Source: an uncultured Candidatus Actinomarinales bacterium
Lineage (GTDB): Bacteria > Actinomycetota > Acidimicrobiia > Actinomarinales > Actinomarinaceae
DNA length: 64,000 nucleotides
Direction: 5' to 3'
NCBI GenBank assembly: GCA_943789065.1
Contig: CALSSQ010000001.1
Span: 746,426-810,425 of the forward strand
Shown here: piece after piece, positions 28,030 to 58,767 of the stretch
How the letters are laid out: each line of letters starts with the position of its first letter
How positions within the stretch are numbered: the first letter of the stretch is position 1
Notes under the pieces: model-generated
The model's database searches: none
Seen by the model: only the letters and a program-made list of their open reading frames with translations
Told to the model about the DNA's origin: nothing
Made by a program: the position numbers and the translations under genes

Positions 28030-28038
28030 AAATAAATG

Positions 28039-28398: not shown

Positions 28399-29212
28399 CC
28401 TCCCTAAGTCTTCGTACTCTTTCTGCTGTTGGTGGGTGTGTAGAAAAAAGTTTTCGCATTCCTCCTCCAGATAATGCTTTTAACGGATCTGATATAAATA
28501 ACTGACTTACAGCAGGATTTATATTCATTGGCAGTTTTGCGTATGCCTCAATTTTTTCTAGTGCTGAAGCTAGTGCTAATGGGTTACCAGAAATTTCCGA
28601 TCCTGTTCTGTCAGCTCCAAACTCCCTAGTTCTTGAGATTGCCATACGTATTATTATTGATGCTAATGGAGCTGCTATGAGAGCAATAATAAAAAACAAT
28701 GGATGAGTATTTCTATTTCTGTTACCTCCACCCCACAGAACACTCCTTGACATAAAAGATATCGTTGAAGCTAACATTGCTGCAATACTCGATACTAAAA
28801 TATCTCTATTTTTGATATGTGAAATTTCATGTGCCAATACCCCTTCGAGTTCATCATTATTTAATACCTTTAAAATACCAGTCGTAACAGCGATACTTGC
28901 ATTTTTAGGATTTCTTCCAGTCGCAAATGCATTAGGTTGGTCATTTTGAATAATGTACAATCGAGGCATGGGCATTTTTTCTTTTTGGATAAGATATTTA
29001 ACAATTCCTCTTACCTCTTCATACTCCCCATCTCCAATTTCTATTGCCTTAGTGGAGGAGAGTGCAATCTTGCCAGAATAGAAATATATTAAAAAGTTGA
29101 AAATACCAGCCAAAGCAATAGAAAAAATTAAGTTATAACCAAGTGTTTGTGCTGTAAAAAGAACAACAAGACTCATTAGGGTTAACAGAGCAGTTGTTTT
29201 TACTTGATTCAT
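28373..29212 (-). CDS. htpX: M48-family zinc metalloprotease HtpX
   Basis: ORF track 279 aa; HEISH zinc motif, N-terminal TM helices. Confidence 0.85.
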   Translation of the reverse strand: MNQVKTTALLTLMSLVVLFTAQTLGYNLIFSIALAGIFNFLIYFYSGKIALSSTKAIEIGDGEYEEVRGIVKYLIQKEKMPMPRLYIIQNDQPNAFATGRNPKNASIAVTTGILKVLNNDELEGVLAHEISHIKNRDILVSSIAAMLASTISFMSRSVLWGGGNRNRNTHPLFFIIALIAAPLASIIIRMAISRTREFGADRTGSEISGNPLALASALEKIEAYAKLPMNINPAVSQLFISDPLKALSGGGMRKLFSTHPPTAERVRRLREDASGIRYG

Positions 29213-29236
29213 GTTATTAATTATAAATGGTGTAGT

Positions 29237-31668: not shown

Positions 31669-31750
31669 AATGAGATCGAAAAATATTGTAGCTATAATTG
31701 TAAAAACAACAATTAATTCACTAGAAATTGCAAGGTAATTAATGGAAATA

Positions 31751-33340: not shown

Positions 33341-33348
33341 TTTTCCTC

Positions 33349-35367
33349 CTATAACACTAACAAAATTAATAAGCTAATTACTATTACTCCGCTTAAAAAA
33401 TACATAATATACTGTTGAGCTTTTCCAGTCTGAAGAAGTTTTACTCTTGCACCCAATGCGTCAGTAGATGAAGATGATATGTTTAATGCTTTATCTATCC
33501 CCCCTTGGTCAAATTTGTTGTACACGATATTTCCAAGGAATATAGCAGCAACTCCAAATAGATTCACAGCTTTGTCTAGAATATTTGTGTTAAATCTATC
33601 AACAGTATTTGCAAGTGTGGATTTAGTTGGATTTATGATGTATTTGAAATAAAAATCATCTAAGTAATATTTATTTTCAAGAAGATTCCATATTGGCTCA
33701 ACTTTAATCTTTTCATCTCCATCTTCTGGTCTACCTAAAATTTGATAGACATAGTAAGCAAGTCCAATACCAGCTAGCCCGGCGAGTAAGCCACTTGTTA
33801 ATGCAAAGTAGTCAAAAGATTCAGGATGATACTCGACTATAGGGTTTTTCCTTGTGGTCACCCAATCAGTAAAGCCCGTATATATTCCTGGAATGTTTAC
33901 CCACCCAGCAGTTACTGCGAAGCCTGCAAGTACAATAAGAGGTGTCGTCATCATAGAGTCTGACTCGTGTGGATGACCATTACCTCTATATTCCCCAAAG
34001 AATGTCAGAACCACGGCTCTAGTCATATAAAAAGCAGTGATAAAAGCACCTGCTACAGCAATAGCAAAATAGGTGTTATATCCTCCGTGATTTAAAGAGG
34101 CGAGTATCTCGTCTTTTGAGAAAAAGCCAGCAAGAGGGGGCAGTCCTGTAAGAGCAATTGTTCCCAGAATAAATGTTGTATATGTTCTGGGCATCTCTTT
34201 TTTGAGCCCACCCATTTCTTTCATGCTGTTTGTATGTACGGCATGAATTACTGATCCTGCACCAAGAAACAGTAGGGCTTTAAAAAAAGCATGTGTCCAA
34301 AGGTGAAATAATGCAGCTGTATAGGCTCCAGATCCAATAGCAGCCACCATATAACCAAGCTGACTGACAGTTGAATATGCGAGAACTTTTTTGAGATCAT
34401 CTTGAACTATGGCTATCATTCCAGCTGCAAAAAGGGTTATAACTCCAAACAGCAAGACCACGTCCAATGCTTCGCTTGCCATACCTTCATAAAAAGGAAA
34501 CATTCTTGCTAGTAAATAAACACCTGCTGTGACCATTGTTGCTGCGTGCATTAGTGCTGAGACTGGTGTTGGACCTGCCATTGCATCAGGTAGCCAGACA
34601 TGAAGCGGGAACTGAGCACTTTTACCCATAGCCCCTATAAATAGTAAAACTCCAGCCAGATAGGCAACTGATTTAAGTGACTCATAATCATGAGTTGATT
34701 GATATAAAATTTCACTTATTCTCATCGTACCTGTAGAAAGCGCCAGCACAATTATTCCAATCATTAATCCAACATCTGCAATTTTGTTGGTTATAAAAGC
34801 CTTCATAGCAGCAGATGAGTTTTCTTTCTTTTCCCAATAATGACCAATTAACAAATAGGAGCAAACACCTACTAGCTCCCAACCAATTAAAAGTTGTAAT
34901 AATGTTGGTGAGGAAACCAAAACTAACATACTTCCAGCAAACAAAGTTAGAGAGGTGAAGAAAAAAGTATATCTGACTTCTCCCTGCATATAATTTGTGG
35001 CGTAAATGAAAACTAAACTAGCCACTGTCCCTACAACAAAATACATCATTATAGAAAGACCGTCTACCACCCAACCAAATTCAAGATCAAATGAACCAAT
35101 GCTTCCCACATTGATAAAAAATTCTGAAGCTACTCCTTCTGTCACATTTAAATAGAGTAGGTATGAACTGAAAGCAAAGATGAAACCTATCGTAGCAAGC
35201 GCAATTTCAGCACCCTTAAGTGGTAGATATTTTCCAAAGAAAGTAATTAGAAGAGCAGCTATAAATGGGAGAACAACAATCAACCAAGTGTACTCAGCGA
35301 AAGTTCCACCATCAGTGTATGTAACTTTTCCTTCAGCTAGAAAGGTGATTAAATTACTATTTACCAT
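33349..35367 (-). CDS. nuoL: NADH-quinone oxidoreductase subunit L (operon 1)
   Basis: ORF track 672 aa; WLPDAMAGPTPVSALMHAATMVTAG motif. Confidence 0.92.
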   Translation of the reverse strand: MVNSNLITFLAEGKVTYTDGGTFAEYTWLIVVLPFIAALLITFFGKYLPLKGAEIALATIGFIFAFSSYLLYLNVTEGVASEFFINVGSIGSFDLEFGWVVDGLSIMMYFVVGTVASLVFIYATNYMQGEVRYTFFFTSLTLFAGSMLVLVSSPTLLQLLIGWELVGVCSYLLIGHYWEKKENSSAAMKAFITNKIADVGLMIGIIVLALSTGTMRISEILYQSTHDYESLKSVAYLAGVLLFIGAMGKSAQFPLHVWLPDAMAGPTPVSALMHAATMVTAGVYLLARMFPFYEGMASEALDVVLLFGVITLFAAGMIAIVQDDLKKVLAYSTVSQLGYMVAAIGSGAYTAALFHLWTHAFFKALLFLGAGSVIHAVHTNSMKEMGGLKKEMPRTYTTFILGTIALTGLPPLAGFFSKDEILASLNHGGYNTYFAIAVAGAFITAFYMTRAVVLTFFGEYRGNGHPHESDSMMTTPLIVLAGFAVTAGWVNIPGIYTGFTDWVTTRKNPIVEYHPESFDYFALTSGLLAGLAGIGLAYYVYQILGRPEDGDEKIKVEPIWNLLENKYYLDDFYFKYIINPTKSTLANTVDRFNTNILDKAVNLFGVAAIFLGNIVYNKFDQGGIDKALNISSSSTDALGARVKLLQTGKAQQYIMYFLSGVIVISLLILLVL

Positions 35368-35666
35368 TTCAACAAATCAAATTCATCAATATTTGCAGTT
35401 TTTCTATTTCTAAACAACATTAAAACAATCGCCAAACCAATCCCTACTTCAGCAGCGGCTATGGTGATAATGAAAATAGTAAAAATTTGACCCTGTAATA
35501 ATGCATCTCCTAACATTGCATTGAAGACTACAAAGTTTATATTCACAGCATTGAGGATTAACTCGATAGACAACAACACCATAACAACATTCCTTCTAAC
35601 TAAAATTCCATAAATCCCAATTGAAAATAATCCTGCTGCTGCAATTAAAAAAGGCTGAGCACTCAT
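35361..35666 (-). CDS. nuoK: NADH-quinone oxidoreductase subunit K (operon 1)
   Basis: ORF track 101 aa; 3-TM NuoK-like, AAAEVGIGLAI motif. Confidence 0.9.
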   Translation of the reverse strand: MSAQPFLIAAAGLFSIGIYGILVRRNVVMVLLSIELILNAVNINFVVFNAMLGDALLQGQIFTIFIITIAAAEVGIGLAIVLMLFRNRKTANIDEFDLLKW

Positions 35667-36181
35667 ATTTGATTCTCGTCAACTAAGGCATTATCTTGCC
35701 TTGCCAAGGTGATTCCACCAATTAAAGCGGCTAGTAAAACGAAAGAGACTACTTCAAAAGGAAATACAAACCTGCTTAATAAAATCTCACCCAGTAATTC
35801 TGTTGAGGTTCCGGTTGTAACAATAATTTGCGAATCGAATGTGTTAAACATCACATATGAAAAAATTACAAAAATTGATAGAGAGACAACTAATGCTAAA
35901 CTTTTGTTCTTATCATTATCTAGTTCCGCATTTTGACCTAATGGCGCTCTAGTGATCATTATTCCAAATAAGAAAAGAACTATTACAGCACCTATGTATA
36001 CAAGAACTATCACCAGTGCAACAAATTCCGCGGACAGTAGTAAAAAAGTTGCAGCTGTTATAGCTAATGTGAAAACTAAAGATATTGCTGCATGAATAAC
36101 GTTTGAAGTTGTGACAACTTTTACAGAAACTAATAAAAGTCCTAAAAGTAAAAAATAACTGATGATGTCCAGTGCTTCCAT
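35663..36181 (-). CDS. nuoJ: NADH-quinone oxidoreductase subunit J (operon 1)
   Basis: ORF track 172 aa; operon position, membrane protein. Confidence 0.85.
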   Translation of the reverse strand: MEALDIISYFLLLGLLLVSVKVVTTSNVIHAAISLVFTLAITAATFLLLSAEFVALVIVLVYIGAVIVLFLFGIMITRAPLGQNAELDNDKNKSLALVVSLSIFVIFSYVMFNTFDSQIIVTTGTSTELLGEILLSRFVFPFEVVSFVLLAALIGGITLARQDNALVDENQI

Positions 36182-36182
36182 T

Positions 36183-36668
36183 TTAACTCTCTAAACCTTC
36201 CACTTCAGGAACTGTGTTTAGCCATTGATCGAGTCTATTTTTATCATGAAGCATATCCCCCATATTGTATTCTGAATATTCGTACTCTGGTGTCCAAAAC
36301 AATGCATCAAAAGGACATACCTCAACACAAATTCCGCAATACATGCAGAGAGCATAGTCAATATCGAACCTGTCAAGAACTGCTCTACTGCGTTCCCTAC
36401 CACCAGGTTTTGCAGGGGGTTGTAATTCTTTATGTCCTTCTATGTAAATACACCAATCTGGGCATTGTCTCGCACAAAGCATGCAGCTAGTGCAAGCATC
36501 TGTATCAAGTGCTATGACTCCCCTTGCTCTGGGTGCAACAATTTCTTTTTCAAATGGGTAATTAACATTTGGATTTGGACTTAGTGGAGATAATGTCTTG
36601 AACATATTAAATAAAAGAATTTTCATTCCAGTCAAAAAGCCAGGTAATTTAGGTCTAAATTTTTTCAT
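36183..36668 (-). CDS. nuoI: NADH-quinone oxidoreductase subunit I (operon 1)
   Basis: ORF track 161 aa; two ferredoxin-type 4Fe-4S motifs (CxxCxxCxxxCP). Confidence 0.92.
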   Translation of the reverse strand: MKKFRPKLPGFLTGMKILLFNMFKTLSPLSPNPNVNYPFEKEIVAPRARGVIALDTDACTSCMLCARQCPDWCIYIEGHKELQPPAKPGGRERSRAVLDRFDIDYALCMYCGICVEVCPFDALFWTPEYEYSEYNMGDMLHDKNRLDQWLNTVPEVEGLES

Positions 36669-37649
36669 TTAAAATACAACTTTCATTATGGATGTTATCA
36701 ATATGTTGAGTAAAGAAAGCGGAATTAAAACCTTCCATGCTAAGTTTTGTAGCTGATCTTCTCTGAATCTAGGAAATGACCATCTCACTAAAACTAATAT
36801 GAAGCCCAGCAAAACTGTTTTAGTAATTAAGACAACTGGTCCATAAAAGTTGACCCATTCAGGTGGGAGAAGTGGGACATGATATCCACCTAGAAATAAT
36901 GTGGAAGCAACTGCACATAATACAAACATGTTCATGTATTCAGCAATATAAAATATTAAAAATCTTACGCCAGAATATTCTGTTAAAAATCCACTAACAA
37001 GTTCGGACTCACCAATTGGCATATCGAATGGTACTCTCATCATTTCAGCTGTTGCAGCTATCATAAAAATTAGGAAGGCAAGACCTTGGCCAGAAAGTGC
37101 AAATGGAAGTCCAAATTCTATTTGTTTCTCAACTATCCCAACAAGTGACATGGTTTCTGCCTGGATGACAACTCCAACTACTGCAAGAATTAATGGAAGT
37201 TCATATGCAATTAACTGTCCTGCAGCACGTATTCCACCCATTAAAGAGTACTTGTTTGCTGAGGACCAACCTGCAGTAAGAACCCCTAGTGTTGATAGCG
37301 AACTTATCGCTAGCAAATAGAAGACTCCTAAATCTAAATCACTCCCAACTAAAGTTGGGCTAATTGGTACAACAACGAATAAACCGAAGACTGATGCAAG
37401 TACATAAGCTGGTGCCCATTTAAAGACAGGAGCGTCAACATTAGTCGGTGTGATGTCTTCTTTTTGGAAAAATTTAATTATTTCAGCTAGTGGAAAAATG
37501 AATCCTCTTAATCCAACATGAAGGGGGCCCGGTCTTCTTTGCATCCATGATGCTCCTTTAACATCGAGAATTGTAAATATTACTGCTCCGTTTAGTGCAA
37601 AAGCTAAAACGATACCTGCAGTTACTAATATCTGAGATCCATCAATCAT
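36669..37649 (-). CDS. nuoH: NADH-quinone oxidoreductase subunit H (operon 1)
   Basis: ORF track 326 aa; NuoH/ND1-like. Confidence 0.9.
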   Translation of the reverse strand: MIDGSQILVTAGIVLAFALNGAVIFTILDVKGASWMQRRPGPLHVGLRGFIFPLAEIIKFFQKEDITPTNVDAPVFKWAPAYVLASVFGLFVVVPISPTLVGSDLDLGVFYLLAISSLSTLGVLTAGWSSANKYSLMGGIRAAGQLIAYELPLILAVVGVVIQAETMSLVGIVEKQIEFGLPFALSGQGLAFLIFMIAATAEMMRVPFDMPIGESELVSGFLTEYSGVRFLIFYIAEYMNMFVLCAVASTLFLGGYHVPLLPPEWVNFYGPVVLITKTVLLGFILVLVRWSFPRFREDQLQNLAWKVLIPLSLLNILITSIMKVVF

Positions 37650-38842
37650 CTATCAACATCCCCTAAAACAAAATCTAGACTGCCCATGATTGCAATCAGA
37701 TCAGGTAACAATTGACCTTCAAGCAGTACTGGGAGGATGGAAATATTACTAAAGGACGGTGTTCTAATTTTTAGTCGGTATGGACCTAGACCACCCTCAG
37801 AAATTACATAGTATCCCATTTCACCTTTTGGATTTTCTGTCCTTACATAAGATCGTCCCTTAGGTACTTTTATAACCTTTGGAACTTTTGTCTGTAGGGG
37901 TCCACTTGGCATGGAGTCAATAGCTTGAAGTATAATTTTAGCTGACTCTCTCATCTCTAGTAGTCGAACATACCAACGATCATAACAATCTCCATTTTCT
38001 CCAACAGGAATCTCGTATTCAAATTTGTCATACGGTAAGAAATCGGTTTGAGTCCTTAAATCAAACTTTACTCCAGATGCTCTCAATATCGGTCCAGAGA
38101 CTCCATATTCTTCAGCAAGTTCTTTGGATATTATCCCAACTCCTTTAGTCCTAGCCTTAAAGACTTCGTTGCCACCAACTAAATCTTCCATTCTCTCAAC
38201 AGCTTCTAGAACCTTCTCCATTGCGTCTCTAGTTTCTTGATAGAAACCTGCTGGTAGATCTTGTACATTTTTTTTGGTTGTGGGGCCCGAACCTGCTGCT
38301 GGTTTTACTCCACCTATTCTATTAAAATTTGGATGAAACCTACCACCTGTTACTGATTCTATTAAATCAAGTATTCTTTCTCTATCCTCCATTGCTAAAA
38401 ATATAGGAGTTAACGCCCCGATCTCTAATGCATAAGCTCCATTGAATACAAAATGAGAAGCAATTCTTGCCATCTCTGTGAGAATCAACCTGATGTGCTT
38501 TGCTCTTTCAGGTGCTTCTATCTCCATTAGCTTTTCAGTTGCAGCAATGAAAGGTATCTCATTAGCAAAACCTGATACCCAATCAATTCTATTAACAAGT
38601 GTTGTAATTTGGGGATATGTTCTGACCTCAGCTAATTTTTCATAGCCTCTGTGCATATAACCTAGAACAGGCTCGACACTTGAAATTTTTTCTCCATCTA
38701 CTTTGGCAACCAGTCTTAATACACCATGTGTTGAGGGATGTTGTGGGCCAATGTTTAGAGTCATGTCTTCAGTTTCTATTTCAACTGAGACCGAAGCTTC
38801 TGAAACATAAGGAACATTTCCTGTATTTAAAATATCATCCAT
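37646..38842 (-). CDS. nuoD: NADH-quinone oxidoreductase subunit D (operon 1; start placed at ATG 38842 after AGGAAG RBS)
   Basis: NIGPQHPSTHGVLRL and GYMHRGYEKL motifs typical of NuoD/49-kDa subunit; the longer ORF-track start overlaps nuoC. Confidence 0.92.
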   Translation of the reverse strand: MDDILNTGNVPYVSEASVSVEIETEDMTLNIGPQHPSTHGVLRLVAKVDGEKISSVEPVLGYMHRGYEKLAEVRTYPQITTLVNRIDWVSGFANEIPFIAATEKLMEIEAPERAKHIRLILTEMARIASHFVFNGAYALEIGALTPIFLAMEDRERILDLIESVTGGRFHPNFNRIGGVKPAAGSGPTTKKNVQDLPAGFYQETRDAMEKVLEAVERMEDLVGGNEVFKARTKGVGIISKELAEEYGVSGPILRASGVKFDLRTQTDFLPYDKFEYEIPVGENGDCYDRWYVRLLEMRESAKIILQAIDSMPSGPLQTKVPKVIKVPKGRSYVRTENPKGEMGYYVISEGGLGPYRLKIRTPSFSNISILPVLLEGQLLPDLIAIMGSLDFVLGDVDR

Positions 38843-38843
38843 T

Positions 38844-39395
38844 TTAATTATCTTCCTTTGAACCGTTTTCTGGCATACCTTCGACATCTACTTCACCAGG
38901 CCATGGCTTAACTTCTCTACTGATCAACTCAAATGATTTGAGCATTGGATTTCCCTCGTAGTCATCTGGAAGATACATTTTTGTGAGGTTTGGATGATTA
39001 TTGAACTCGATACCAAACATTTCGTATGCTTCTCGTTCGTGCCAATTAGAACCTGCAAAAACCTCAATTAAGGATGGAATCATTGCATCTTCTTTTTCTA
39101 TTTCAGTAGATACTAAAACAACATTTCCTTCAATTGACTCTGACAAGCAAAAAACTATTTCAAAATGTGGTGATACTGATTCTTTCGGGGGGTCTCCTAC
39201 TGAAACTTCATTTTCCCAATCAATGGCGCTTAGCCATGAAAAGTAAGTAAGTTGAAATTCTTCTTTAAGAATTTTTGCTGTTTCTACCCATTCTTCTGGT
39301 TTTACTTTTATTTTTAGGGTATCAAATTCATTTTCTACACTAGAAAATTTTGTAGATATTGACTCAATAAACTCTGCATTGCTAGACAGGTTCAT
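38844..39395 (-). CDS. nuoC: NADH-quinone oxidoreductase subunit C (operon 1)
   Basis: ORF track 183 aa; NuoC/30-kDa-like ([12 protein letters not shown]). Confidence 0.9.
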
Positions 39396-39879
39396 TTTGA
39401 TCTGCTTTCCATTTTTCTTTCATGTCTTCTCCTCTTATTTTTTCTTGTAGGAGAATAATTCCCTCTTGTAAAGCTTCAGGTCTTGGAGGACATCCTGGAA
39501 CGTATACGTCAACAGGGATAAGTTGATCCACACCTTTTGTAACAGAGTATGAATCCCAATATGGACCACCGCTATTTGAACAGGAACCCATAGATATGAC
39601 ATATTTTGGCTCTGGCATTTGATCATATAGTCTTTTTACTGCTGGTGCCATTTTGTCTGTGACTGTTCCAGCGACAACCATTAAATCAGCTTGTCTTGGT
39701 GATGCAGGTAGTGGGATAATTCCAAGTCTCATAAAATCATGTCTGGGTCCACTTACTGCCATAACTTCTATTGCACAGCAAGCTAATCCAAATTGGAAAT
39801 ACCACAAAGAGTATGACCTAGCCCAGTTTAAAACTGACGATATCGGTTTTGGTAATCCGAATTTATCAACTACTCCCAT
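39382..39879 (-). CDS. nuoB: NADH-quinone oxidoreductase subunit B (operon 1)
   Basis: ORF track 165 aa; N2 cluster ligands CCAIE ... [10 protein letters not shown] ... [11 protein letters not shown]. Confidence 0.93.
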
Positions 39880-40235
39880 TTCAATACATCCTTTCTAATT
39901 GCATAAATTAATCCGATTAACAAAATAAAAATAAAAACTAGCATTTCCACTAAACCAAAATAACCTAACTTCTCAAGATTAATTGCCCATGGGAATATGA
40001 ATACTGCTTCAACATCAAAAATTACGAACAATAGGCCAAAAATATAGTATCGAATGTAAGTCTGACTCCAACCTGTCCCGACGGGGTCAACACCTGACTC
40101 GTAGGTTGTAAGTTTTTCAGGAGAGGGATTATTCGGCCTGAGGATAGCTGCAATAGATGTCAAAATGAGCATAAATATAATGCCCACTGCTAACAATACT
40201 GCTACTGTTGCGTACTCCTGAAAATAAGAATTCAT
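39870..40235 (-). CDS. nuoA: NADH-quinone oxidoreductase subunit A (operon 1)
   Basis: ORF track 121 aa; 3-TM NuoA-like, first gene of operon. Confidence 0.88.
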
Positions 40236-40311: not shown

Positions 40312-41406
40312 ATGAGCAATCTTGAAAATATTTTAGGAAAAAGTAGCTTACTCGACCTATCAAAAAAACTATTTAATGTAGTTACAAAGACAGTTGACTT
40401 TCATGAAGAACATGAAATAAATCTTGATTCTAAAATTCTTCAAGCAGAAACCATAAATTTTGTTTTAGCCGATGGTCTTGGAAGTGAAAACTTAAAACTA
40501 GCTAAGTCTGATTATTTAAAGGATTCAAATTCTTTTTCTGTAAATTCAACTTTTCCTAGCTCAACTAATGTTGCTTTAAGCACTATTAACTATGTATCTA
40601 AGCCTGTGGAGACATCAATTTTAGGTTATTATCTCTTTGATAGAGAAGAGCACGGACTTATTAATGCCTTAAACTGGAACAAAGAAAACAAATCTTTATT
40701 AAAACATCCAGATATTAAAGACCGACAAACCATATGGACTCTTTTAAGAAATAAAGGTATTACCTCCAATAACCTACAACCTCGCGACTTAGTAGATAGT
40801 GCATTGTCTGAATACATCTATAAAGACTCCCATCAGATTGCATATAAAGACACAGAAGAATTAAATGAAATAGTTAGTGACTCTTCAGTATTGGATAATC
40901 GCTTTAATTTTATTTACTATCCGAATATTGATATCTCAGCCCATGTTTTTGGAGTAGGTAGTGATCAGTGGCATGAAGAAGTTGGTATTTTTGAAATGTT
41001 TATAAAGAATTTAAACAGTACTCAATCCAAAAAAATGTACACCTTGATAACGGCAGATCACGGTCTCACAAACATCTCTAATGAGAATCGGATTCATCTA
41101 GATTATGAGGAGGATGTTGTTGTCTACGGAGATCAGAGAAGTGTTTATATCAATGGTGACGAAACGAAAGTTAAAAAAATATTTAAGAATGTCCCTGGAC
41201 GTTTTCTTAACAGTGTAGAAATAAGACACTTAATTGGAGAACCTACAAATAATCTAAACAAAAGGCTTTACCCTGACCACTGTTTCCTTGTAGATGATGG
41301 ATACATTATTTTTCCAAAACATTTAAAGGCCAACTTGGTTGGATACCATGGAGGAATTACAGAAGAAGAAATGCGGGTACCTGTTATAGAAATTATTAAC
41401 TTTTAA
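40312..41406 (+). CDS. Alkaline-phosphatase-superfamily protein (nucleotide pyrophosphatase/phosphodiesterase-like), apparently cytoplasmic
   Basis: 364 aa; metal-ligand-like motifs VLADGLGSE, ITADHGLTN, GYHGG; no N-terminal signal peptide. Confidence 0.5.
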   Translation: MSNLENILGKSSLLDLSKKLFNVVTKTVDFHEEHEINLDSKILQAETINFVLADGLGSENLKLAKSDYLKDSNSFSVNSTFPSSTNVALSTINYVSKPVETSILGYYLFDREEHGLINALNWNKENKSLLKHPDIKDRQTIWTLLRNKGITSNNLQPRDLVDSALSEYIYKDSHQIAYKDTEELNEIVSDSSVLDNRFNFIYYPNIDISAHVFGVGSDQWHEEVGIFEMFIKNLNSTQSKKMYTLITADHGLTNISNENRIHLDYEEDVVVYGDQRSVYINGDETKVKKIFKNVPGRFLNSVEIRHLIGEPTNNLNKRLYPDHCFLVDDGYIIFPKHLKANLVGYHGGITEEEMRVPVIEIINF

Positions 41407-41422: not shown

Positions 41423-42208
41423 ATGAAATTTTTAAAAACTTTATTTATATTAGTAATCCTTAGTGCATGCCAGACAAACATAACAGAAGAGGGTTTTGCT
41501 GAGATAGGCATTGAGCCATCTATTGAGCCATATAGAATGGCATCTGACTCAATAGAAAGTAGTTCACTATCTCCAGGAGAGTACATAATCAAATCTGCCT
41601 ATGGAAGCATGGATGTTAGTACGTCTAATTTTGAGAAGAAAGTGGATGAATTCAAAAATCTTGTAACTCAATACAATGGCAATATTTCTGACTCATATTT
41701 ATCTACTAATTACCAAGGATTAAAGAGTTTTAGTATCACATCAAACATACCTGCCGCAGATTTTGATCAATTTATACTCGACGTTGAAAATATTAAAGAC
41801 TTTTCAGATATCAGCATCAATGCAAACGATGTTACAACTTATGTTTTAGATATTGACTCAAGGTTATCTTCATTGGTGAATGAAAAGGAAGCACTTGAGG
41901 AGATCAAACTTGAAGCGAAAACAACATCTGACCGCTTAGAGGTTCAAAATCAACTTCGTTATATCAATCAGGATATTGAGATGCTTAAGGGTCAAAAAGA
42001 ATATTACACAAATGCTGTTTCATACTCAAAACTCACATTAAACATCAGGGAAGGTTCTGGAATTTCATTATTTTCCTGGAATTATTATTTTGAGAGAAGC
42101 CTTAATTGGATTGAGAGCATCGTTGGAATTACTTTTTCAATCGGGATAATCGCTTTCCCAATTTTCTTAATATTCTTATTAATTAAGAAACTGAAAAAAA
42201 GAGAATAA
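41423..42208 (+). CDS. Lipoprotein with central coiled-coil and C-terminal TM anchor (DUF4349-like architecture)
   Basis: 261 aa; lipobox LSAC after N-terminal signal, coiled-coil region, C-terminal hydrophobic helix then KKLKKRE. Confidence 0.5.
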   Translation: MKFLKTLFILVILSACQTNITEEGFAEIGIEPSIEPYRMASDSIESSSLSPGEYIIKSAYGSMDVSTSNFEKKVDEFKNLVTQYNGNISDSYLSTNYQGLKSFSITSNIPAADFDQFILDVENIKDFSDISINANDVTTYVLDIDSRLSSLVNEKEALEEIKLEAKTTSDRLEVQNQLRYINQDIEMLKGQKEYYTNAVSYSKLTLNIREGSGISLFSWNYYFERSLNWIESIVGITFSIGIIAFPIFLIFLLIKKLKKRE

Positions 42209-42286
42209 TGGCCTTTTCCTACATTGGGCTTTTCTTAATAATCCTTTTAGTAATCTTCTTTGGAAGAAAGATTAAATAATCCTCAA

Positions 42287-43090
42287 TTAGTTTGGCTGAT
42301 ATGTTCCAGCAAATACTTGCCATGCTAGACAAGTTTTAGCAAGTAGACTCAACCATATATAGGCTCTTTCACCGTATAAATAGTCTTTCCACTTTCCTAC
42401 ACCTTTATATTGAAGAATCATATTTATTGAAAAAGTGTTAAAAAAGAAAAATATACTAACAAATATCCAGACTACGAATTGGGGAACCCCTTGAGGATTT
42501 GCATCTGTAGCAACTCCATCACCTATTAAATTGATAAAAATAAAAATCCACGGTGCAATACCAGCTAAACAACCCATGATATAAGCAGTCCAATCAACTT
42601 TTTCAGTATATTGATTGTGTACTTCCATCATCCAACCAAACCAACACATCGCAGCATTCATGACAAAAATTCCAGCTAGTGCCCAAACATCATAAATTCC
42701 TACAAGTAAAGCTATCAACACAATCATTACTGAAGCACTAATTGAGTACTCGATCCAGCGGACTTTATTAATACCTTTCATTAAATCTGCTTTATACCTG
42801 TTATAGAAAGGGCCCGATATAAGAAAATGTGCGAGTGCTGATGCCAACAAAAATGTTGCAACTGCAGGTCCGAAGTTTGATACCTCTCTCCAGATTTGTA
42901 GTTCGGGAACTAAAGCGAAGCTTGATGGATCTTCAGGAGTTCCAACTCCAATAAGTTGAGTAATTGTTAAGGGTACTGTGAAACCTGTATTTACTACGGT
43001 TCCCAAATAAAATAAACCTGCTCCTTGGATAAGGTGTACTAATCCCATTCTTAAATTAAATTTCTTAAGCTTCTGAATTTTTACTTCCAT
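42287..43090 (-). CDS. Heliorhodopsin (7-TM retinal-binding protein, inverted topology family)
   Basis: 267 aa; by-eye alignment to heliorhodopsin 48C12: LVHLIQ (His), ALAHFLI (His), RWIEYSISASVMIVLIA (counterion Glu), QYKGVGKWKDYLYGERAYIWLSLLAKTCLAWQ with Schiff-base Lys in last helix. Confidence 0.85.
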   Translation of the reverse strand: MEVKIQKLKKFNLRMGLVHLIQGAGLFYLGTVVNTGFTVPLTITQLIGVGTPEDPSSFALVPELQIWREVSNFGPAVATFLLASALAHFLISGPFYNRYKADLMKGINKVRWIEYSISASVMIVLIALLVGIYDVWALAGIFVMNAAMCWFGWMMEVHNQYTEKVDWTAYIMGCLAGIAPWIFIFINLIGDGVATDANPQGVPQFVVWIFVSIFFFFNTFSINMILQYKGVGKWKDYLYGERAYIWLSLLAKTCLAWQVFAGTYQPN

Positions 43091-43138
43091 TATTTTTTAC
43101 CTTTTTTATTAAATACTCTAAACCCTATTATTACAGAT

Positions 43139-43333
43139 ATGGATATTAATGAAATTAATAATGAGTTAGATAACTTAATTCGTGAATTAAACACTTTAGT
43201 TAAGTCACTAGCAAATTCAAGAGAGCTTATTGCAGAGGATAATTTTAAAAGAGCTACAAACTATCTTTCTGAGACTGAAATAGCACTTCAAGCAATCGCA
43301 GGAAAAGTATCTAAGATTAAACTACTTATTTGA
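43139..43333 (+). CDS. Small helical protein of unknown function (64 aa), divergent from heliorhodopsin
   Basis: ORF track 64 aa, predicted helical, only 48 bp from heliorhodopsin start; 3' end overlaps convergent ABC ATPase gene; could be spurious. Confidence 0.3.
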   Translation: MDINEINNELDNLIRELNTLVKSLANSRELIAEDNFKRATNYLSETEIALQAIAGKVSKIKLLI

Positions 43334-44347
43334 AGGAAAAGTAGTTACTTCCGAAACTTCAATACAAATCTTATCCCCTGGTTCATATATAACAGACGGG
43401 AGAGATCTTGATCGGAATATCTCACCTTTGTTGTTCTGAAAAGAGATAACTTGATCATGTCCGTAAAAAGTGCACTCTTTAACCGTATAAGGTCCCATAG
43501 AGTCTAAATTGATTTCGATACACTCCGGACGTATTGATACATCTAGAGCACCCTCATATGCTGAGGTGAAACTTCCAAGGGATGTTTCTACTCTTCCATC
43601 TACTGAAAATCCCTTAAGAATATTTGGATCCCCAACTGAATTTGCTACAGATTGACTGATTGGATTCAAGTAAATCTCTTGAGGAGTTGCACTTTGTATA
43701 ACATTTCCATTTTCCAAAACACTAACAATATCGCATACCGACAAGGCTTCCTCTTGATCATGTGTAACAATTATTGCAGTAGTCTGAGTCTCTCTTAAAA
43801 GAGACACAACCTCATCTCTAAGGACTCTCGCCATTTGGGCATCTAAACTTGTAAAAGGTTCGTCAAGGAGAATCATTTCTGGTTTTGGGGCAAGTGCTCT
43901 AGCTAAAGCCACTCTTTGTTGTTGACCTCCTGAAAGTTTTTGAGGAAATTTATTTTTATATTGTGTCAAATTACACATATCTATTACTTCTTGCAATCGC
44001 CCACTATTTTGCTCTTCTTTACTAAGGCCAAAAGCTATATTTTTTTCAACGTTTAGGTGGGGAAATAATGCATAATCTTGAAAAACCATTCCTATGTTTC
44101 TGTTTTCAGGCGGTGTGTTTGTTTCGTGATCAAAAATTACTTTGTTATACATTTCGATGCTTCCTGAATCTGGTAATTCAAACCCCGCAAGCATTCTTAA
44201 AGCTGTAGTTTTTCCTGATCCAGAGGTCCCTAGTATTCCGAAAATTGAACCCTCCCATATATCAATATTGAAATTGGAAAGAACAGATTCAGCCCCATAT
44301 GACTTAGATAGGCTTCTAGCTCTCAAAATAAGACTGTCAAATACCAT
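43322..44347 (-). CDS. ABC transporter ATP-binding protein, FbpC/PotA-like with C-terminal TOBE-type domain
   Basis: 341 aa; Walker A GTSGSGKTT, signature LSGGQQQRVALARA, Walker B ILLDEPF. Confidence 0.88.
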   Translation of the reverse strand: MVFDSLILRARSLSKSYGAESVLSNFNIDIWEGSIFGILGTSGSGKTTALRMLAGFELPDSGSIEMYNKVIFDHETNTPPENRNIGMVFQDYALFPHLNVEKNIAFGLSKEEQNSGRLQEVIDMCNLTQYKNKFPQKLSGGQQQRVALARALAPKPEMILLDEPFTSLDAQMARVLRDEVVSLLRETQTTAIIVTHDQEEALSVCDIVSVLENGNVIQSATPQEIYLNPISQSVANSVGDPNILKGFSVDGRVETSLGSFTSAYEGALDVSIRPECIEINLDSMGPYTVKECTFYGHDQVISFQNNKGEIFRSRSLPSVIYEPGDKICIEVSEVTTFPSNK

Positions 44348-45903
44348 TATGTTGTTAAATTCCTTGTACTTAATATATAAGTAGGAATTGCACTTATTGC
44401 CAACAAAATAAATGAAGAAAATGCTGCTTGAGTGAATAATCCTTCAGATGCATATGACCAAATATCAATAGCCATAGTATTTAGACCTGTAGGCCTAAGT
44501 AGTAATGTTTGTGGTAATTCTTTCATCGTTGATAAGAAAACGAGTGCTCCACCTGCAAACAAGCCTCTATATATTAATGGAAGAGTAATTCTGTAAAAAC
44601 TTTTTAACTTTGACATGCCTAATCCAGAACTTGCATCTAAGTAATTAGATTTTACCTGCTCCATGGACGCCTGGCCTGCTCCAATCGCTTGAGGAAGAAA
44701 GACTATTAGGTAGGAGATAATTAAAGCTGTAAAACTTTGATATATAGACGGGAAGATTTTAATTGTAATAAATAAGATGGCAACCCCGACAGATATATGA
44801 GGTAAGCCATAAAGTGCAAGCATGATTCTCTCTAAAACGTTTCCAAATTTTGAACGATATTGTGAAACCATAATAATAATAGGTGTCGAAACAATCACAG
44901 AAAAAAGTGCTGCCAATAGAGATACACTTAGAGATCCTACAACTCCTCCAAATACAGCTCTAACACTATTCCCAGCTGAGAGTCCCCTAATGAGCCAATA
45001 GCTTAAAACTGATATCGGCAAAATGAGTCCTGAAAAAATAACTAAACTCAGAAAGGTATAAATTAGTACTTTAGACCTTGGACTTAGATTAGTTTTTTCA
45101 GATATTTTTGGAGTTCCACTGACTTTCGCTGATCTTGCCTCTTCCGATCCTCTTTGTATAAAACTTATTAGCAGTGCCAAAACTATTAAGATACTTGAGT
45201 AAAAAATAACTGGATCGCCGTTTATATTAAATTCATAATAACTATAAATAGCCTTTGTAAGAGTTGAATATCTCATCAATGAAACTGCACCGAAATCTGA
45301 TATCACATACAAGCCAACCAGGAGACCAGAGAAGATAATTGGTTTTTTTAATCTTGGTATTACAACTTGTGTGTAAACATTAAATCTGTTTTTACCTAAT
45401 GATCGTGCAGCATCTTCAACAGTAGAATCGAGATTTCGAAGTGCGCTACTACAAATTAATAGGACGTAAGGATATGTAAATAATGTCAAAACTAACCAAC
45501 TACCAAAAAAGCCATCAATTCCAGCTATTTCATTTATTCCAAGACTGGAAAATAATTGTACGAATAGACCTTTAGGAGAGAAAGCTGAAACATAAGTTAA
45601 TGCTCCAATGTAAGAAGGGATAACCAAAGGAAGCACAGATAGGGTAAATAAGATTTTGGAACCAGGTATATTAAAGCGAACAAGGATTATTGATATCAAT
45701 AGACCTAAAATTAAACTTGAAATAACAACAAAAATAAATAAAAGAATTGTATTTAAAAGTAAGTCAAAGACATTCCAAGATCTAAAAAAACTTACATAAG
45801 ATTTAGTAAAAGTTAGAAATCTCCAGATTAAATAAAATGTAGGGAGCAAGAAGGTAATAAGAATAATGAAGTTGGTGATTATGAGTGCTTTTGGAGTTTT
45901 CAC
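44347..45903 (-). CDS. ABC transporter permease, fused double-domain FbpB-type (iron(III)-type)
   Basis: 518 aa, about 12 TM; size and duplicated-domain layout typical of FbpB/ThiP-type permeases. Confidence 0.75.
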   Translation of the reverse strand: MKTPKALIITNFIILITFLLPTFYLIWRFLTFTKSYVSFFRSWNVFDLLLNTILLFIFVVISSLILGLLISIILVRFNIPGSKILFTLSVLPLVIPSYIGALTYVSAFSPKGLFVQLFSSLGINEIAGIDGFFGSWLVLTLFTYPYVLLICSSALRNLDSTVEDAARSLGKNRFNVYTQVVIPRLKKPIIFSGLLVGLYVISDFGAVSLMRYSTLTKAIYSYYEFNINGDPVIFYSSILIVLALLISFIQRGSEEARSAKVSGTPKISEKTNLSPRSKVLIYTFLSLVIFSGLILPISVLSYWLIRGLSAGNSVRAVFGGVVGSLSVSLLAALFSVIVSTPIIIMVSQYRSKFGNVLERIMLALYGLPHISVGVAILFITIKIFPSIYQSFTALIISYLIVFLPQAIGAGQASMEQVKSNYLDASSGLGMSKLKSFYRITLPLIYRGLFAGGALVFLSTMKELPQTLLLRPTGLNTMAIDIWSYASEGLFTQAAFSSFILLAISAIPTYILSTRNLTT

Positions 45904-45944
45904 AATATAAGAATATCTATGTTAATGAGTTATATAAAGAAAAA

Positions 45945-45977
45945 ATCTGGCCAGGTTGATGTGACCAGATTTTTTTC
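45945..45977 (-). terminator. Intra-operon hairpin flanked by A-run and T-run between substrate-binding-protein and permease genes
   Basis: ATCTGGCCA-ggttgatg-TGACCAGAT (9-bp stem, 1 mismatch) with aaaaaa upstream and ttttttc downstream; works as terminator on either strand. Confidence 0.5.
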
Positions 45978-46008
45978 TTTTGTATATAGCATTAGTATCT
46001 AATGACTG

Positions 46009-47121
46009 TTAGAAACCTGCCTTTGCTATAAGTTCTACTGCTTTTTCTTGCCATAAAGCTAATGCAGACCAGTTCAAATCCTCAGGAGAGTTCAAACTAT
46101 CGATTTCTGGTAAAAGGGCATTTGGCGTAATACCTGGAACGAGTGGGAACTCAAATACAGTATTTGTGAAATGCTCTTGTGCGCTTGTTGAGTGTAGATA
46201 CTCAATAAATGCTATAGCTGCTGGTTTATTTTGGCTCGAAGATAAAACTCCTGCTCCAGCTGGCATGACCATTGCGCCACAACCGCCATCAAGATATATA
46301 TTTTTAACTGGGCTATCGCCATTTTCAGCTAATACTCTTAATGTGTAGTAGTGATTAATCATTCCAATGTCTAACTCACCTGCATCTGCAGCAGCAACTT
46401 GAGGGGAGTTCTTTGGATATTCTGTATATCCAAGACCATTGATGGCTTTTAACCATTCGGCGACTTTTTCTTCACCATCTGACTCAATCATGCAAGCAAC
46501 CATAGCTATGAAAGATGAGTTACCAGGTGCAAGACCAAGTCTTCCTCTAAATTTTTCATCATTTAAACCATAAATATCTGAAGGCATTTCTGCATCAGTT
46601 GTATCTCTGGTGTCAACAACAAGTGAACGTGATCTTCCAGAAGTTCCAACCCAGTACCCTCTTTGGTCTACTGCCCATGCTGGAACGTTGTCTAATACCT
46701 CAGCTGGTAAGACATCGAAAAGTCCTTCCTTGGCTACAACACCAAGACTTATTGGATCTTGTGATAAGAAAACGTCAGCTGGGCTTATTGCACCCTCAAG
46801 GGCTAAAGTACCTGCTAACGCAGCACTCTTGTCATAACGAACTTCAACTGCTACTCCAGTCTCAGCTGCGAATGCAGCTATGACGTCAGCGACTAAGCTT
46901 TCTTTTCTACCACTATAAATAACTAGAGATCCTTCGACTGCAGCTTCTTCTTCAGCTAAAGCAGCTTCTACTGCAGCATCCAAAGCAGCTTGGCTTATTT
47001 CGCCAGCCTCACCCTTTTCACCTTGTTCTCCTTGAGGGCCTGCTTCTCCGGCATCTCCACCTGCACATGCAGTAAAGACCATTAAGCAAGCAACAAGAAG
47101 GGAAATTGATTTCTTATTCAT
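46009..47121 (-). CDS. ABC transporter substrate-binding lipoprotein, Fe(3+)-type (FbpA/AfuA-like); start placed at internal Met
   Basis: MNKKSISLLVACLMVFTACAGG lipoprotein signal, Gly/Glu/Ala-rich linker, then periplasmic binding-protein fold; upstream of permease and ATPase. Confidence 0.75.
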   Translation of the reverse strand: MNKKSISLLVACLMVFTACAGGDAGEAGPQGEQGEKGEAGEISQAALDAAVEAALAEEEAAVEGSLVIYSGRKESLVADVIAAFAAETGVAVEVRYDKSAALAGTLALEGAISPADVFLSQDPISLGVVAKEGLFDVLPAEVLDNVPAWAVDQRGYWVGTSGRSRSLVVDTRDTTDAEMPSDIYGLNDEKFRGRLGLAPGNSSFIAMVACMIESDGEEKVAEWLKAINGLGYTEYPKNSPQVAAADAGELDIGMINHYYTLRVLAENGDSPVKNIYLDGGCGAMVMPAGAGVLSSSQNKPAAIAFIEYLHSTSAQEHFTNTVFEFPLVPGITPNALLPEIDSLNSPEDLNWSALALWQEKAVELIAKAGF

Positions 47122-47160
47122 AAAATATATTCCTTTTATTTGCTTATTATTGTTAACCAT

Positions 47161-47181
47161 ACTTAACATTAAATGTTAAGT
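47161..47181. promoter_or_regulatory. Perfect 10-1-10 palindrome, candidate operator upstream of the substrate-binding-protein gene
   Basis: ACTTAACATT-A-AATGTTAAGT; spacer too short for a hairpin, so protein-binding site likely; layout resembles DtxR/IdeR operators but sequence differs from consensus. Confidence 0.35.
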
Positions 47182-47467: not shown

Positions 47468-48145
47468 ATGATTAAACATATGCTCACTCAAAAAGAAATG
47501 GAAAAACTGCCGGAATCTTTTTATAAACAAGCAGTTGCAATTTTTCATCTTAATGAAGTGGGTATTGAAGTTAAGCAGACAAGAGTTGCTGAGTGGCTTG
47601 ACGTCAGCAGAGCTAACGTTTCGCAAATTACAGGAAGAATGCAAAATAGTGGCCTAATAAAATTTGAGGACGATCTTCAACTTACAGATAAGGGTTTATA
47701 TTTAGCCAAAACTGTTGCCAGGAGACATAGAATTGTTGAAAGATTTCTATCAGAAGTATTAAAACTCCCATGGGAAAAAGTTTATGCGGAGACTTCTAAA
47801 TGGGAGAATATACTCAGTCCAGTTACTGAAAAAGCAATGCTTTCTATACTCGGCAATCCAACTACTGGACTTTTTGGGAATCCTATACCCTACTCTAAAT
47901 ACAAGAAACTAGAAACTACAAATCTTTTAAATGTACAAAAGGACAGAAATTATTCAATTAATAAAATAACGGAAGAATTAAAAAGAGATGCTTCCATGAT
48001 TAGTTTTTTACAAGAAAATAAAATAGTCCCAGGTTCAAAAATTATTATTGCTGATGCAAATGAATTCTCAATTACTGTAAGTACTGATAACAAAAAATTT
48101 TTTGGTTTAGACCAATATATAGCTGAAAGAGTTTTCGTGAACTAA
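47468..48145 (+). CDS. DtxR/IdeR-family metal-dependent transcriptional regulator with C-terminal SH3-like (FeoA) domain
   Basis: 225 aa; N-terminal wHTH (VAEWLDVSRANVSQITGRMQNSGLI), dimerisation/metal-binding region, C-terminal extension; divergent from iron ABC operon. Confidence 0.8.
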   Translation: MIKHMLTQKEMEKLPESFYKQAVAIFHLNEVGIEVKQTRVAEWLDVSRANVSQITGRMQNSGLIKFEDDLQLTDKGLYLAKTVARRHRIVERFLSEVLKLPWEKVYAETSKWENILSPVTEKAMLSILGNPTTGLFGNPIPYSKYKKLETTNLLNVQKDRNYSINKITEELKRDASMISFLQENKIVPGSKIIIADANEFSITVSTDNKKFFGLDQYIAERVFVN

Positions 48146-49728: not shown

Positions 49729-50280
49729 TTAGCTACTTAAACTCTTTATATCTGTTATCTCTTCTTTGGAAATAACTCCATATCCCTTTTTTTGAATCTC
49801 ATTAGTTCCCTTTTTAATGAGATACCAATATATAGTTTGTTCATCTGGAATGTTTAATGCATTTTTGAACTCTTCTTTGTTTATGTAAGCAGTTATCGTT
49901 CTGTTTCTGATTCTATCATCTCTGATTCCTGCTCTCATTATTCCATCGAGATAGATTTCACTTAATTTGGATGATTTTTGAATTGTTGGTACTTCTATTA
50001 TATTATGAGTATCTCCAATACCACTTTCCTCCAAAGAATCTATAGTTTCATCAACAATTGCTTGATGCCATTGTTGAAAAGCTACAATGACTATTAAATC
50101 TTTGTCGACAAAATCGTCTGGAACAGTTTTACTTTTTTTATTCAAGTTGTTTCCCTGTACGGATGGAAATATTCCCTCTGAAGAGATCATTGGCGAACTT
50201 TCACTAGATTGACATCCCATAATTAATAGGAAAACAAGACATAGCCATACTAAATTACGGCGTTCCAAGGATTTCTTCAA
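49729..50280 (-). CDS. Putative lipoprotein, unknown function
   Basis: 183 aa; signal peptide with LIMGC lipobox-like motif; last gene of 4-gene minus-strand cluster. Confidence 0.5.
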   Translation of the reverse strand: MKKSLERRNLVWLCLVFLLIMGCQSSESSPMISSEGIFPSVQGNNLNKKSKTVPDDFVDKDLIVIVAFQQWHQAIVDETIDSLEESGIGDTHNIIEVPTIQKSSKLSEIYLDGIMRAGIRDDRIRNRTITAYINKEEFKNALNIPDEQTIYWYLIKKGTNEIQKKGYGVISKEEITDIKSLSS

Positions 50281-57311: not shown

Positions 57312-57314
57312 TAA

Positions 57315-58144: not shown

Positions 58145-58149
58145 TTTTT

Positions 58150-58764: not shown

Positions 58765-58767
58765 CTT

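Follow-up and report, generated by a model that had tools for sequence, protein, structure and literature searches.

Introduction

Heliorhodopsins (HeRs) are inverted, retinal-binding light-sensor proteins whose cellular role is still debated. Among the type-1 rhodopsins, Anabaena sensory rhodopsin (ASR) has a co-transcribed soluble transducer with a beta-sandwich fold (ASRT). The HeR partners known elsewhere are glutamine synthetase, photolyase and the multidrug ABC exporter OmrDE, the last described for OcHeR of Omithinimicrobium cerasi, in which partner binding is controlled by basic residues of the ICL1 and ICL3 loops (PMC11109279).

The closest described systems are those of Candidatus Actinomarina, an abundant marine actinobacterium in which a demonstrated HeR partner would be ecologically relevant. 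Kovalev et al. (2020; PMC7049168) noted two large Nuo clusters around its HeR gene, and in the account of López-Pérez et al. (2020; PMC7771536), which also describes the 11-subunit operon, this gene is "always" placed with one nuo operon on each side. Bulzu et al. (2021; bioRxiv 10.1101/2021.02.01.429150, later mSphere) grouped afuABC, HeR and an 11-subunit complex I, together with NDUFAF7, HtpX, PspE/rhodanese and adenosine kinase, in their cluster C11, and proposed that HeR is a light-induced switch of the energy-metabolism components of this cluster. Hence, the HeR gene, its neighbours and the light-switch idea are already known from work published in 2020-2021. The locus analyzed herein is one more member of C11 and adds no new object; our additions are counts of how far the gene block is conserved, its absence from 129 other HeR loci and from a basal Actinomarinales lineage, evidence that a small adjacent reading frame (orf64) is a real gene, and a lead concerning an ATP10-like lipoprotein.

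Results

A C11-type locus in an uncultured Candidatus Actinomarinales bacterium

The window, i.e., the whole 64,000-nt stretch of contig CALSSQ010000001.1 that was analyzed, has a G+C content of about 35%, and its left third carries ribosomal-protein genes, EF-G/EF-Tu, rpoBC and nusG. The features relevant to the HeR gene are as follows.

27073-28029, minus strand: PfkB kinase (Pfam), the last of four genes (27073..30262) that follow the 11-subunit nuo operon
28039-28398, minus strand: rhodanese (Pfam)
28373-29212, minus strand: HtpX M48 peptidase (Pfam)
29237-30262, minus strand: NDUFAF7-like methyltransferase (Pfam)
30268..40235, minus strand: 11-subunit complex-I-like operon nuoA-B-C-D-H-I-J-K-L-M-N, or nuo11 (ORFs, and Pfam labels of 75-93% identical orthologues in loci L001 and L002)
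40312..41406, plus strand: alkaline-phosphatase-superfamily gene (type I phosphodiesterase/PglZ-like), divergent from nuoA (Pfam Phosphodiest, E 3.1e-10)
41423..42208, plus strand: DUF4349 lipoprotein gene, convergent with HeR (Pfam DUF4349, E 7.9e-32)
42287..43090, minus strand: heliorhodopsin (HeR) gene, 267 aa, ATG start (PF18761 and NF038020)
43091..43138, no strand: 48-nt divergent spacer between HeR and orf64 (sequence read directly)
43139..43333, plus strand: orf64, encoding a 64-aa helical (coiled-coil-like) protein, divergent from HeR (conservation in relatives)
43322..47169, minus strand: ABC importer operon (Pfam SBP_bac_6/11, two BPD_transp_1, ABC_tran)
43322-44347, minus strand: afuC, ATPase (ABC_tran)
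44347-45903, minus strand: afuB, fused two-domain permease (two BPD_transp_1)
45940..45975, minus strand: terminator- or attenuator-like hairpin with a T-run between afuA and afuB (terminator scan, 14-pair stem)
46009-47169, minus strand: afuA, SBP lipoprotein (SBP_bac_6/11)
47468..48145, plus strand: DtxR-family metal-dependent repressor with a FeoA-like C-terminal domain (Pfam Fe_dep_repr_C, E 1.2e-18)
49729..50280, minus strand: ATP10-like lipoprotein gene, 6.6 kb from HeR (Pfam PF05176)
52466..63888, minus strand: second, full-size nuo operon (N, M, L ... H, G, F, E), toward the window end (Proton_antipo_M, NADHdh, NuoG domains, Complex1_51K, 2Fe-2S_thioredx)

As in cluster C11, the HeR gene is preceded by afuABC and followed by nuo11 with the NDUFAF7, HtpX, rhodanese and PfkB kinase genes; the protein belongs to the same clade (80-100% identity), and a second, 14-subunit nuo operon lies nearby. 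That operon includes the E, F and G subunits, while in nuo11 nuoD abuts nuoH and the NADH-oxidising module E/F/G is absent. Compared with locus L001, the window copy lacks the ferrochelatase gene that L001 carries between DtxR and afuA. The counterparts of the 40312..41406 gene in relatives carry precomputed PglZ matches.

The geometry given in the original prediction, with a convergent DUF4349-like gene, a 64-aa ORF 48 bp away and an 11-subunit nuo operon at about 2 kb, was reproduced: the gap between the DUF4349 gene and HeR measures 78 nt, and the start of nuoA at 40235 (minus strand) lies 2.05 kb from HeR. Its statement that the window holds no retinal or carotenoid biosynthesis genes agrees with our scan, in which none were detected among the window ORFs covered, those of the ribosomal-protein region being included in part. 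The adjacent "DtxR-linked Fe(3+) ABC transporter" stood in part, as both an importer operon and a DtxR-family gene are present; the Fe(3+) substrate, in turn, is a label taken from the literature, where afuABC is a KEGG-type assignment (Bulzu et al., 2021), and it is not secure, because the NCBIfam matches of the three transporter proteins all fall below their cut-offs. The product of 47468..48145 likewise reaches 128.5 bits against NCBIfam DtxR, under the cut-off of 290.

The 42287-43090 product is a genuine heliorhodopsin

The 267-aa protein is a genuine member of the HeR family. It matches Pfam PF18761 (Heliorhodopsin) with an E-value of 5.5e-88 and 294.8 bits (cut-off 26.7), its residues 8-263 covering positions 1-241 of the 242-position profile, and the NCBIfam HeR equivalog NF038020 with 312.8 bits (cut-off 100). 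The top matches among PDB sequences were TaHeR (6is6, E 7.8e-67) and 48C12 (6su3/9ljj, E about 3.5e-58), aligned over residues 2-266. The AlphaFold2 model (pLDDT 84.6) is predicted to have seven helices and the long AB-loop beta-hairpin typical of HeRs, with DSSP strands at 38-49 and 59-71; in Foldseek comparisons it superposes on TaHeR with TM scores of 0.88/0.94, an rmsd of 1.9 Å and 46% identity, and on 48C12 with TM 0.80-0.87, while the best non-HeR structures reach E-values of about 1e-3 and TM scores of about 0.5-0.6. The initial, sequence-based recognition of a 267-aa, 7-TM heliorhodopsin is therefore borne out by Pfam, NCBIfam, PDB matches and the model alike.

The alignment with 48C12, originally made by eye, was repeated with MAFFT on 25 sequences, including 23 database HeRs and 48C12 itself. 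It confirmed the full-length match to 48C12 (47% identity) and the conservation of both His residues, the counterion Glu and the Lys near position 252. Residues H19, H88, E114 (RWIEYS), S248 and K252 (SLLAKTCLAWQ) are invariant across this alignment and correspond to H23, H80, E107, S237 and K241 of 48C12; the Schiff-base lysine in TM7 (K252) and the single Glu counterion in TM3 (E114) are invariant both in this and in a second alignment. Moreover, the polar residues of the Schiff-base cavity N12, N108, S84, Y115, W112 and E156 are the equivalents of 48C12 N16, N101, S76, Y108, W105 and E149. The alignment also places M224 at the position of Q213 in 48C12, Met being the common variant outside the subfamily 1 to which 48C12 belongs (PMC7049168).

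TaHeR, from a Thermoplasmatales archaeon (PDB 6is6/7clj/7u55), is the best match in both sequence and fold and has in common with the window protein the counterion Glu, the lysine of TM7 and both histidines; in contrast, the Actinomarinales protein carries insertions in the AB and EF loops and comes from a bacterial marine host. These clade-specific insertions comprise about 10 residues of the extracellular AB hairpin and about 4-8 residues of the EF loop. The AB loop also distinguishes the protein from 48C12 (PDB 6su3/6su4/6uh3/9ljj), with which it shares the same positive-inside topology. When helices are taken from the AlphaFold2 model, 13 Lys/Arg residues fall in the N-terminus and the BC, DE and FG loops, and one in the AB, CD and EF loops and the C-terminus. 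The count, which was the topology check suggested at the outset, predicts the inverted orientation, with a cytoplasmic N-terminus and the C-terminus outside. The loops ICL1 (GPFYNRYKADLMKGINKVRW) and ICL3 (QYKGVGKWKDYLYGER) agree with the family consensus in the alignment.

A type-1 microbial rhodopsin was considered and rejected. In the proposed comparison of profile models, the HeR models were matched above their cut-offs and Pfam Bac_rhodopsin gave no match at E<=0.01; in Foldseek, structures of type-1 rhodopsins, that of the Actinomarina pump MacR among them, stay at TM 0.45-0.6 with 10-16% identity; and the charge distribution indicates an N-in protein, in contrast to the N-out topology of type-1 rhodopsins.

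Transcriptional setting of the HeR gene

The HeR gene is bracketed by genes on the opposite strand, orf64 upstream and the DUF4349 and PglZ-like genes downstream, before nuoA. Since opposite-strand genes flank it on both sides, HeR is probably transcribed alone as a monocistronic unit, as judged from gene order, and therefore does not belong to an ordinary operon with either afuABC or nuo. The 48-nt spacer must contain or overlap the promoters of both HeR and orf64; in it are TATTAT, ending 7 nt ahead of the orf64 start codon, and AAAGGT, upstream of that of HeR. The afuC-HeR gap is 231 nt long, its predicted RNA fold is not unusual (z -0.79) and only a weak AT-rich hairpin follows afuC, and transcriptional read-through from afuC into HeR across this gap may occur. 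Scans of positions 40000-47600 for promoters and terminators returned fewer sites than did shuffled sequences (21 promoter sites versus 28.8 expected).

An iron-regulatory tie of HeR was rejected: with up to 3 mismatches allowed, the window contains no match (0) to the DtxR/IdeR consensus box TWAGGTWAGSCTWACCTWA, and a perfect palindrome of 23 bp, overlapping the start of afuA and retained only in the nearest relatives, has no copy near HeR.

orf64 is a real, lineage-specific orphan gene

All 64 codons of orf64 are intact in 13 of 13 full-length copies from relatives. Its codon-position entropy (0.71/0.38/1.04) reveals that variation is dominated by the third position, and pairwise dN/dS values of about 0.04-0.6 indicate purifying selection. 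In 32 of 35 clade loci the gene is present at a distance of 44-74 nt from where HeR starts, and its last 12 nt overlap the 3' end of afuC. Searches of Pfam and NCBIfam, and phmmer against 1.84 billion proteins, yielded only coiled-coil noise and near relatives, the latter amounting to 9 representatives at E<=1e-3 among the 1.84e9 proteins. Hence, orf64 is a real, lineage-specific orphan gene. The label "ElaB/YqjD/DUF883" that one source gives to it is without Pfam support.

The gene block is confined to one lineage

Our scan, with one genome taken per species, revealed an HeR 99.6-100% identical to the window protein in an uncultured Candidatus Actinomarinales MAG (L008) and HeRs of 87-96% identity in Ca. 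Actinomarina genomes; an identical protein is encoded on 214 public contigs, of which the longest measures 1.02 Mb. Database relatives form a tight marine clade at 80-99% identity, followed by a gap down to about 56%. Our comparison covered 43 HeR loci of this Actinomarinales clade, among which the HeR gene occurs in 37 different nucleotide versions, as well as 129 HeR loci outside it, bacterial and archaeal, which were drawn from scans of genomes and metagenomes and comprise 1.52 Mb of flanking sequence.

Counting only clade loci with sufficient flank, afuC lies upstream of HeR in 31/31, nuoA is found in 24/25 and the PglZ-like gene in 24/26, while the DUF4349 gene is variable (22/33) and the DtxR-family gene occurs in only part of the loci, being absent from those of the L002/L108/L109 type. 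The same-strand order afuABC, HeR, nuo11 is retained even in loci with a transporter as far diverged as 49-61% identity (L002/L115/L116). In the non-clade sample, tblastn with 25 window proteins gave a different result: nuo subunits, afuA/afuB, PglZ, DUF4349, DtxR and orf64 were found at 0/129 loci within the 1.52 Mb, and the sole afu-type matches were generic ABC ATPases. The neighbourhood conservation that the original prediction asked for is thus real within the canonical Actinomarinales branch and nil in the non-clade loci.

Two loci, L088 and L089, form an exception within the clade. Their HeRs are 80% identical to the window protein and carry the clade-specific insertions, and their G+C content is 35%; orf64 is missing, and the gene order is csp (a cold-shock gene), two small membrane ORFs, HeR and PmbA/TldD genes. 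A gene neighbouring these HeRs clusters with a protein labelled Ca. Actinomarinales, and in a neighbour-joining tree this HeR type branches at the base of the Actinomarinales HeR clade. The published "always" is thereby qualified, since in this basal lineage the HeR gene lies outside the block.

Discussion

We herein show that the afuABC-orf64-HeR-(DUF4349)-PglZ-nuo11 block is a synteny inherited in one lineage and represents one evolutionary event; it counts as a single event because it is confined to one lineage of extremely syntenic, streamlined genomes, and, as single-lineage synteny, it is weak evidence of function. With the basal exception in mind, the clade counts should be read with caution and not be taken as replicated evidence. 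The suggestion made with the discovery of the gene, that a recurring context would point to a role in respiration or iron/redox homeostasis, is therefore answered in two ways: the context does recur within the canonical branch, but it is absent from the 129 other loci and from the basal branch. The link to iron and respiration is thus neither refuted nor independently supported.

Given this, we favour, with a probability of roughly 60%, a stand-alone sensory or regulatory HeR whose genomic context is inherited synteny. By analogy with TaHeR, 48C12 and the partner-binding HeRs, the protein would bind all-trans retinal. Retinal synthesis is absent from the order (López-Pérez et al., 2020; PMC7771536), and since the Actinomarinales cell does not make retinal it would have to scavenge it. 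The protein would then act as a slow-cycling light sensor that does not pump ions, and its conserved, positively charged cytoplasmic loops may be in contact with one or more partner proteins and modulate them, as has been described for OcHeR. Three points sit less comfortably with a stand-alone sensor. The very tight linkage in the canonical branch could reflect selection, as Bulzu et al. (2021) argue; transcription might run on from afuC into HeR; and the clade-specific AB and EF insertions lie in extracellular loops, hinting at a lineage-specific interaction outside the cell for which a cytoplasmic-loop model gives no account.

An unlikely alternative, in our estimation, is the published proposal of Bulzu et al. 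(2021), in essence also that of the original prediction, of a light switch for the neighbouring genes: HeR would in the light modulate the complex-I-like enzyme of 11 subunits, the ABC importer of Fe(3+) type, or both, so that respiration or iron uptake would follow the day-night cycle. The persistence of the afuABC, HeR, nuo11 order (afuC in 31/31 and nuoA in 24/25 loci) despite a diverged transporter speaks for it, as does the same-strand conservation argument of Bulzu et al. (2021), namely that only same-strand genes are conserved. That argument is weakened by our locus counts, according to which the opposite-strand orf64 and PglZ-like genes, which separate HeR from both of its proposed targets, are as constant in the clade as the same-strand genes. 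The linkage, moreover, goes back to a single lineage and event, and is seen neither in the 129 other loci nor in the basal lineage, while the iron assignment is weak and DtxR is missing from several lineages.

The experimental precedent for such a switch is the OcHeR-OmrDE system, in which HeR binds and up-regulates an ABC transporter (PMC11109279). The likeness consists in a HeR gene adjoining ABC-transporter genes and in conserved basic residues of ICL1 and ICL3. However, OmrDE is a heterodimeric exporter with fused TMD-NBD subunits that is co-transcribed with helR, whereas the window encodes an SBP-dependent importer that lies on the same strand as HeR with an opposite-strand gene in between and is not arranged with it as an operon. 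Set against the HeR-regulated ABC-transporter operons of Cho et al. (2024), in which a single promoter drives helR together with the genes of a fused TMD-NBD exporter, the locus differs in both respects, as orf64 intervenes between afuC and HeR and the importer is built of separate SBP, permease and ATPase proteins.

We regard it as rather more doubtful still that HeR is a light switch in physical contact with a product of its own neighbourhood, be it the Fe-type importer, the 11-subunit complex I devoid of an NADH module or the orf64 protein; in a variant of this idea, it would be the outer face of HeR that engages extracytoplasmic lipoproteins such as the ATP10-like protein. If true, a HeR coupled to a neighbour or to a lipoprotein would offer a concrete partner on which the function of HeRs could be tested.

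Taken on its own, a role of orf64 as a soluble transducer or regulator of HeR signalling appears improbable. The analogy is with the 14-kDa transducer of Anabaena sensory rhodopsin, where a small soluble protein is likewise encoded beside a non-pumping rhodopsin, and it is an analogy only, as orf64 is helical, divergently oriented and unrelated in sequence to ASRT. Its position next to the HeR start in 32/35 clade loci, the purifying selection acting on it and its restriction to the lineage would suit such a protein, as would its being missing exactly where the HeR context differs (L088/L089). The linkage of orf64 to afuC, with overlapping 3' ends, is nevertheless equal to its linkage to HeR; it has no recognisable domain and no homologue beside HeR in the 129 other loci, and the basal lineage retains an 80%-identical HeR without it.

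There is very little likelihood that HeR itself is a transporter or an enzyme, i.e., that it conducts protons under light gating in the manner of viral V2HeR3 or photoreduces carbonate or nitrate bound within the Schiff-base cavity. Its closest characterised relatives are the prokaryotic TaHeR and 48C12, at 46-47% identity, and no redox cofactor site is evident in the protein. To our knowledge, ion transport has not been detected for TaHeR or 48C12. Proton transport has been reported for a viral HeR (cited in PMC11109279 and PMC12873467), but among the HeR subfamilies it is the viral one that has diverged furthest (PMC7049168). The photoreductant idea is a speculation of Kovalev et al. (2020; PMC7049168) and is consistent with the anion-binding cavity of 48C12 described there, residues N12, H19, H88, N108, E114 and S248 being conserved in the window protein.

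Finally, an inactive apoprotein or evolutionary relic in an organism unable to make retinal, which would fit the missing retinal pathway of the order (PMC7771536) and the result of our window scan, was rejected along with a pseudogene as scarcely credible, given that chromophore-pocket and Schiff-base residues are invariant in the clade, protein identity is 80-99%, the exact protein recurs on the 214 contigs and the same genomes retain a proton-pumping type-1 rhodopsin that also depends on retinal (PMC7771536).

A separate observation concerns the ATP10-like lipoprotein gene at 49729..50280. PF05176 is matched by 8 of 10 members of its family (best E 2.6e-14), the family has no significant match among PDB sequences, and no mention of HeR together with ATP10 was found in the literature searched. 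Among the 129 distant loci, 5 have a homologue at most 10 kb from HeR, directly adjacent to it in 3 of these, where about 0.5 matches in 1.5 Mb would arise by chance for a gene that is single-copy per 3-Mb genome, a rough rate uncorrected for phylogeny. Reverse look-ups starting from the ATP10-like homologues revealed HeR about 2 kb away in 2 of 4 cases, and the protein recurs beside HeR in Chloroflexota, Nanopelagicales and Actinomarinales.

Genes Accompanying Heliorhodopsin at Distant Loci

Two genes in the surroundings of the heliorhodopsin gene (HeR; window 42287-43090, minus strand) have homologues near heliorhodopsin genes outside the Actinomarinales HeR clade:

48181-48663, plus strand, DUF454 (YbaN-like) small membrane protein gene, 5 kb from HeR
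49729-50280, minus strand, ATP10-like (PF05176) lipoprotein gene, 6.6 kb from HeR

Homologues of the ATP10-like gene lie at most 10 kb from the heliorhodopsin gene in 5/129 unrelated loci, belonging to Chloroflexota, Nanopelagicaceae and others, and directly adjoin it in three of those five. Reverse look-ups starting from ATP10-like homologues recovered a heliorhodopsin gene approximately 2 kb away in two of four cases, and a literature search combining "heliorhodopsin" with "ATP10" found no paper pairing both. DUF454 homologues occur within the same distance (≤10 kb) in 4/129 distant loci (L086, L130, L131, and L156).

ATP10-like homologues at other heliorhodopsin loci (recurrence is also recorded for L174 and L176)
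L030, 3019-3468
L065, 5478-5870
L162, 7308-7706
L085, 7474-7899
L071, 1832-2194

The published statement that heliorhodopsin is "always between two nuo operons" is contradicted by loci L088 (1-7435) and L089 (1-3974), with a G+C of 35%, whose heliorhodopsins (80% identity) form a basal branch of the Actinomarinales clade. Their gene order is csp, two small membrane ORFs, HeR, PmbA/TldD, and DNA-alkylation repair, as read from contigs in which the upstream sequence stops 0.6-0.8 kb from HeR.

Heliorhodopsin Loops and the Divergent ORF

Compared with all other heliorhodopsins, the protein of the window carries clade-specific insertions at residues of about 31-34, 47-51, 70, and 192-199, which are situated in the extracellular AB hairpin and the EF loop; its cytoplasmic loops follow the family consensus. 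The divergent 64-aa ORF (orf64; 43139-43333, plus strand) represents a true gene, and purifying selection acts on it. Its distribution is restricted to Actinomarinales, with nine representatives among 1.84e9 proteins, and no family assignment was found for it; the label "ElaB/YqjD/DUF883", given to its relatives in one source, is without Pfam support.

The Adjacent ABC Importer

The substrate assignment of the "Fe(3+)" importer afuABC (43322-47169, minus strand) is uncertain: the best NCBIfam matches are 2-aminoethylphosphonate, molybdate, polyamine, and ferric, all far under their cut-offs. The substrate-binding lipoprotein AfuA possesses a collagen-like GEAGPQGEQGEKGEAGE linker C-terminal to the lipobox. 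In one Actinomarina lineage (L002, L115, and L116), whose locus lacks DtxR, the ABC transporter occupying this position shares only 49/53/61% identity (substrate-binding protein/permease/ATPase) with that of the window, compared with 83.5% for HeR and 92% for NuoB. Replacement or fast evolution of the transporter, with the gene order kept, seems to have taken place. Two putative regulatory elements were located:

47160-47182, perfect 23-bp palindrome TACTTAACATT-A-AATGTTAAGTA, overlapping the afuA start codon
45940-45975, minus strand, 14-pair hairpin followed by a T-run, between afuA and the permease gene afuB

The palindrome, a candidate operator, persists in the closest relatives (L008 and L011), is degenerate in L096, L100, and L117, and is absent elsewhere; no copy was found near HeR. 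The hairpin resembles an attenuator or terminator within the operon, which would favor an excess of the substrate-binding protein.

Other Genes of the Window

NuoG of the 14-subunit nuo operon (59855-62189, minus strand) is encoded by two overlapping ORFs, 60552-62189 (545 aa) and 59855-60607 (250 aa). The break falls within the molybdopterin domain and could stem from a frameshift, from misassembly, or from a gene that is truly divided. Beside the tRNA cluster (region 23831-24783) lies a regulatory gene:

24199-24783, minus strand, ECF-type sigma factor

It belongs to the small number of sigma factors that a genome of such limited size would be expected to have, and is followed by a 123-aa ORF (23831-24783, minus strand, for both genes), possibly encoding an anti-sigma factor.
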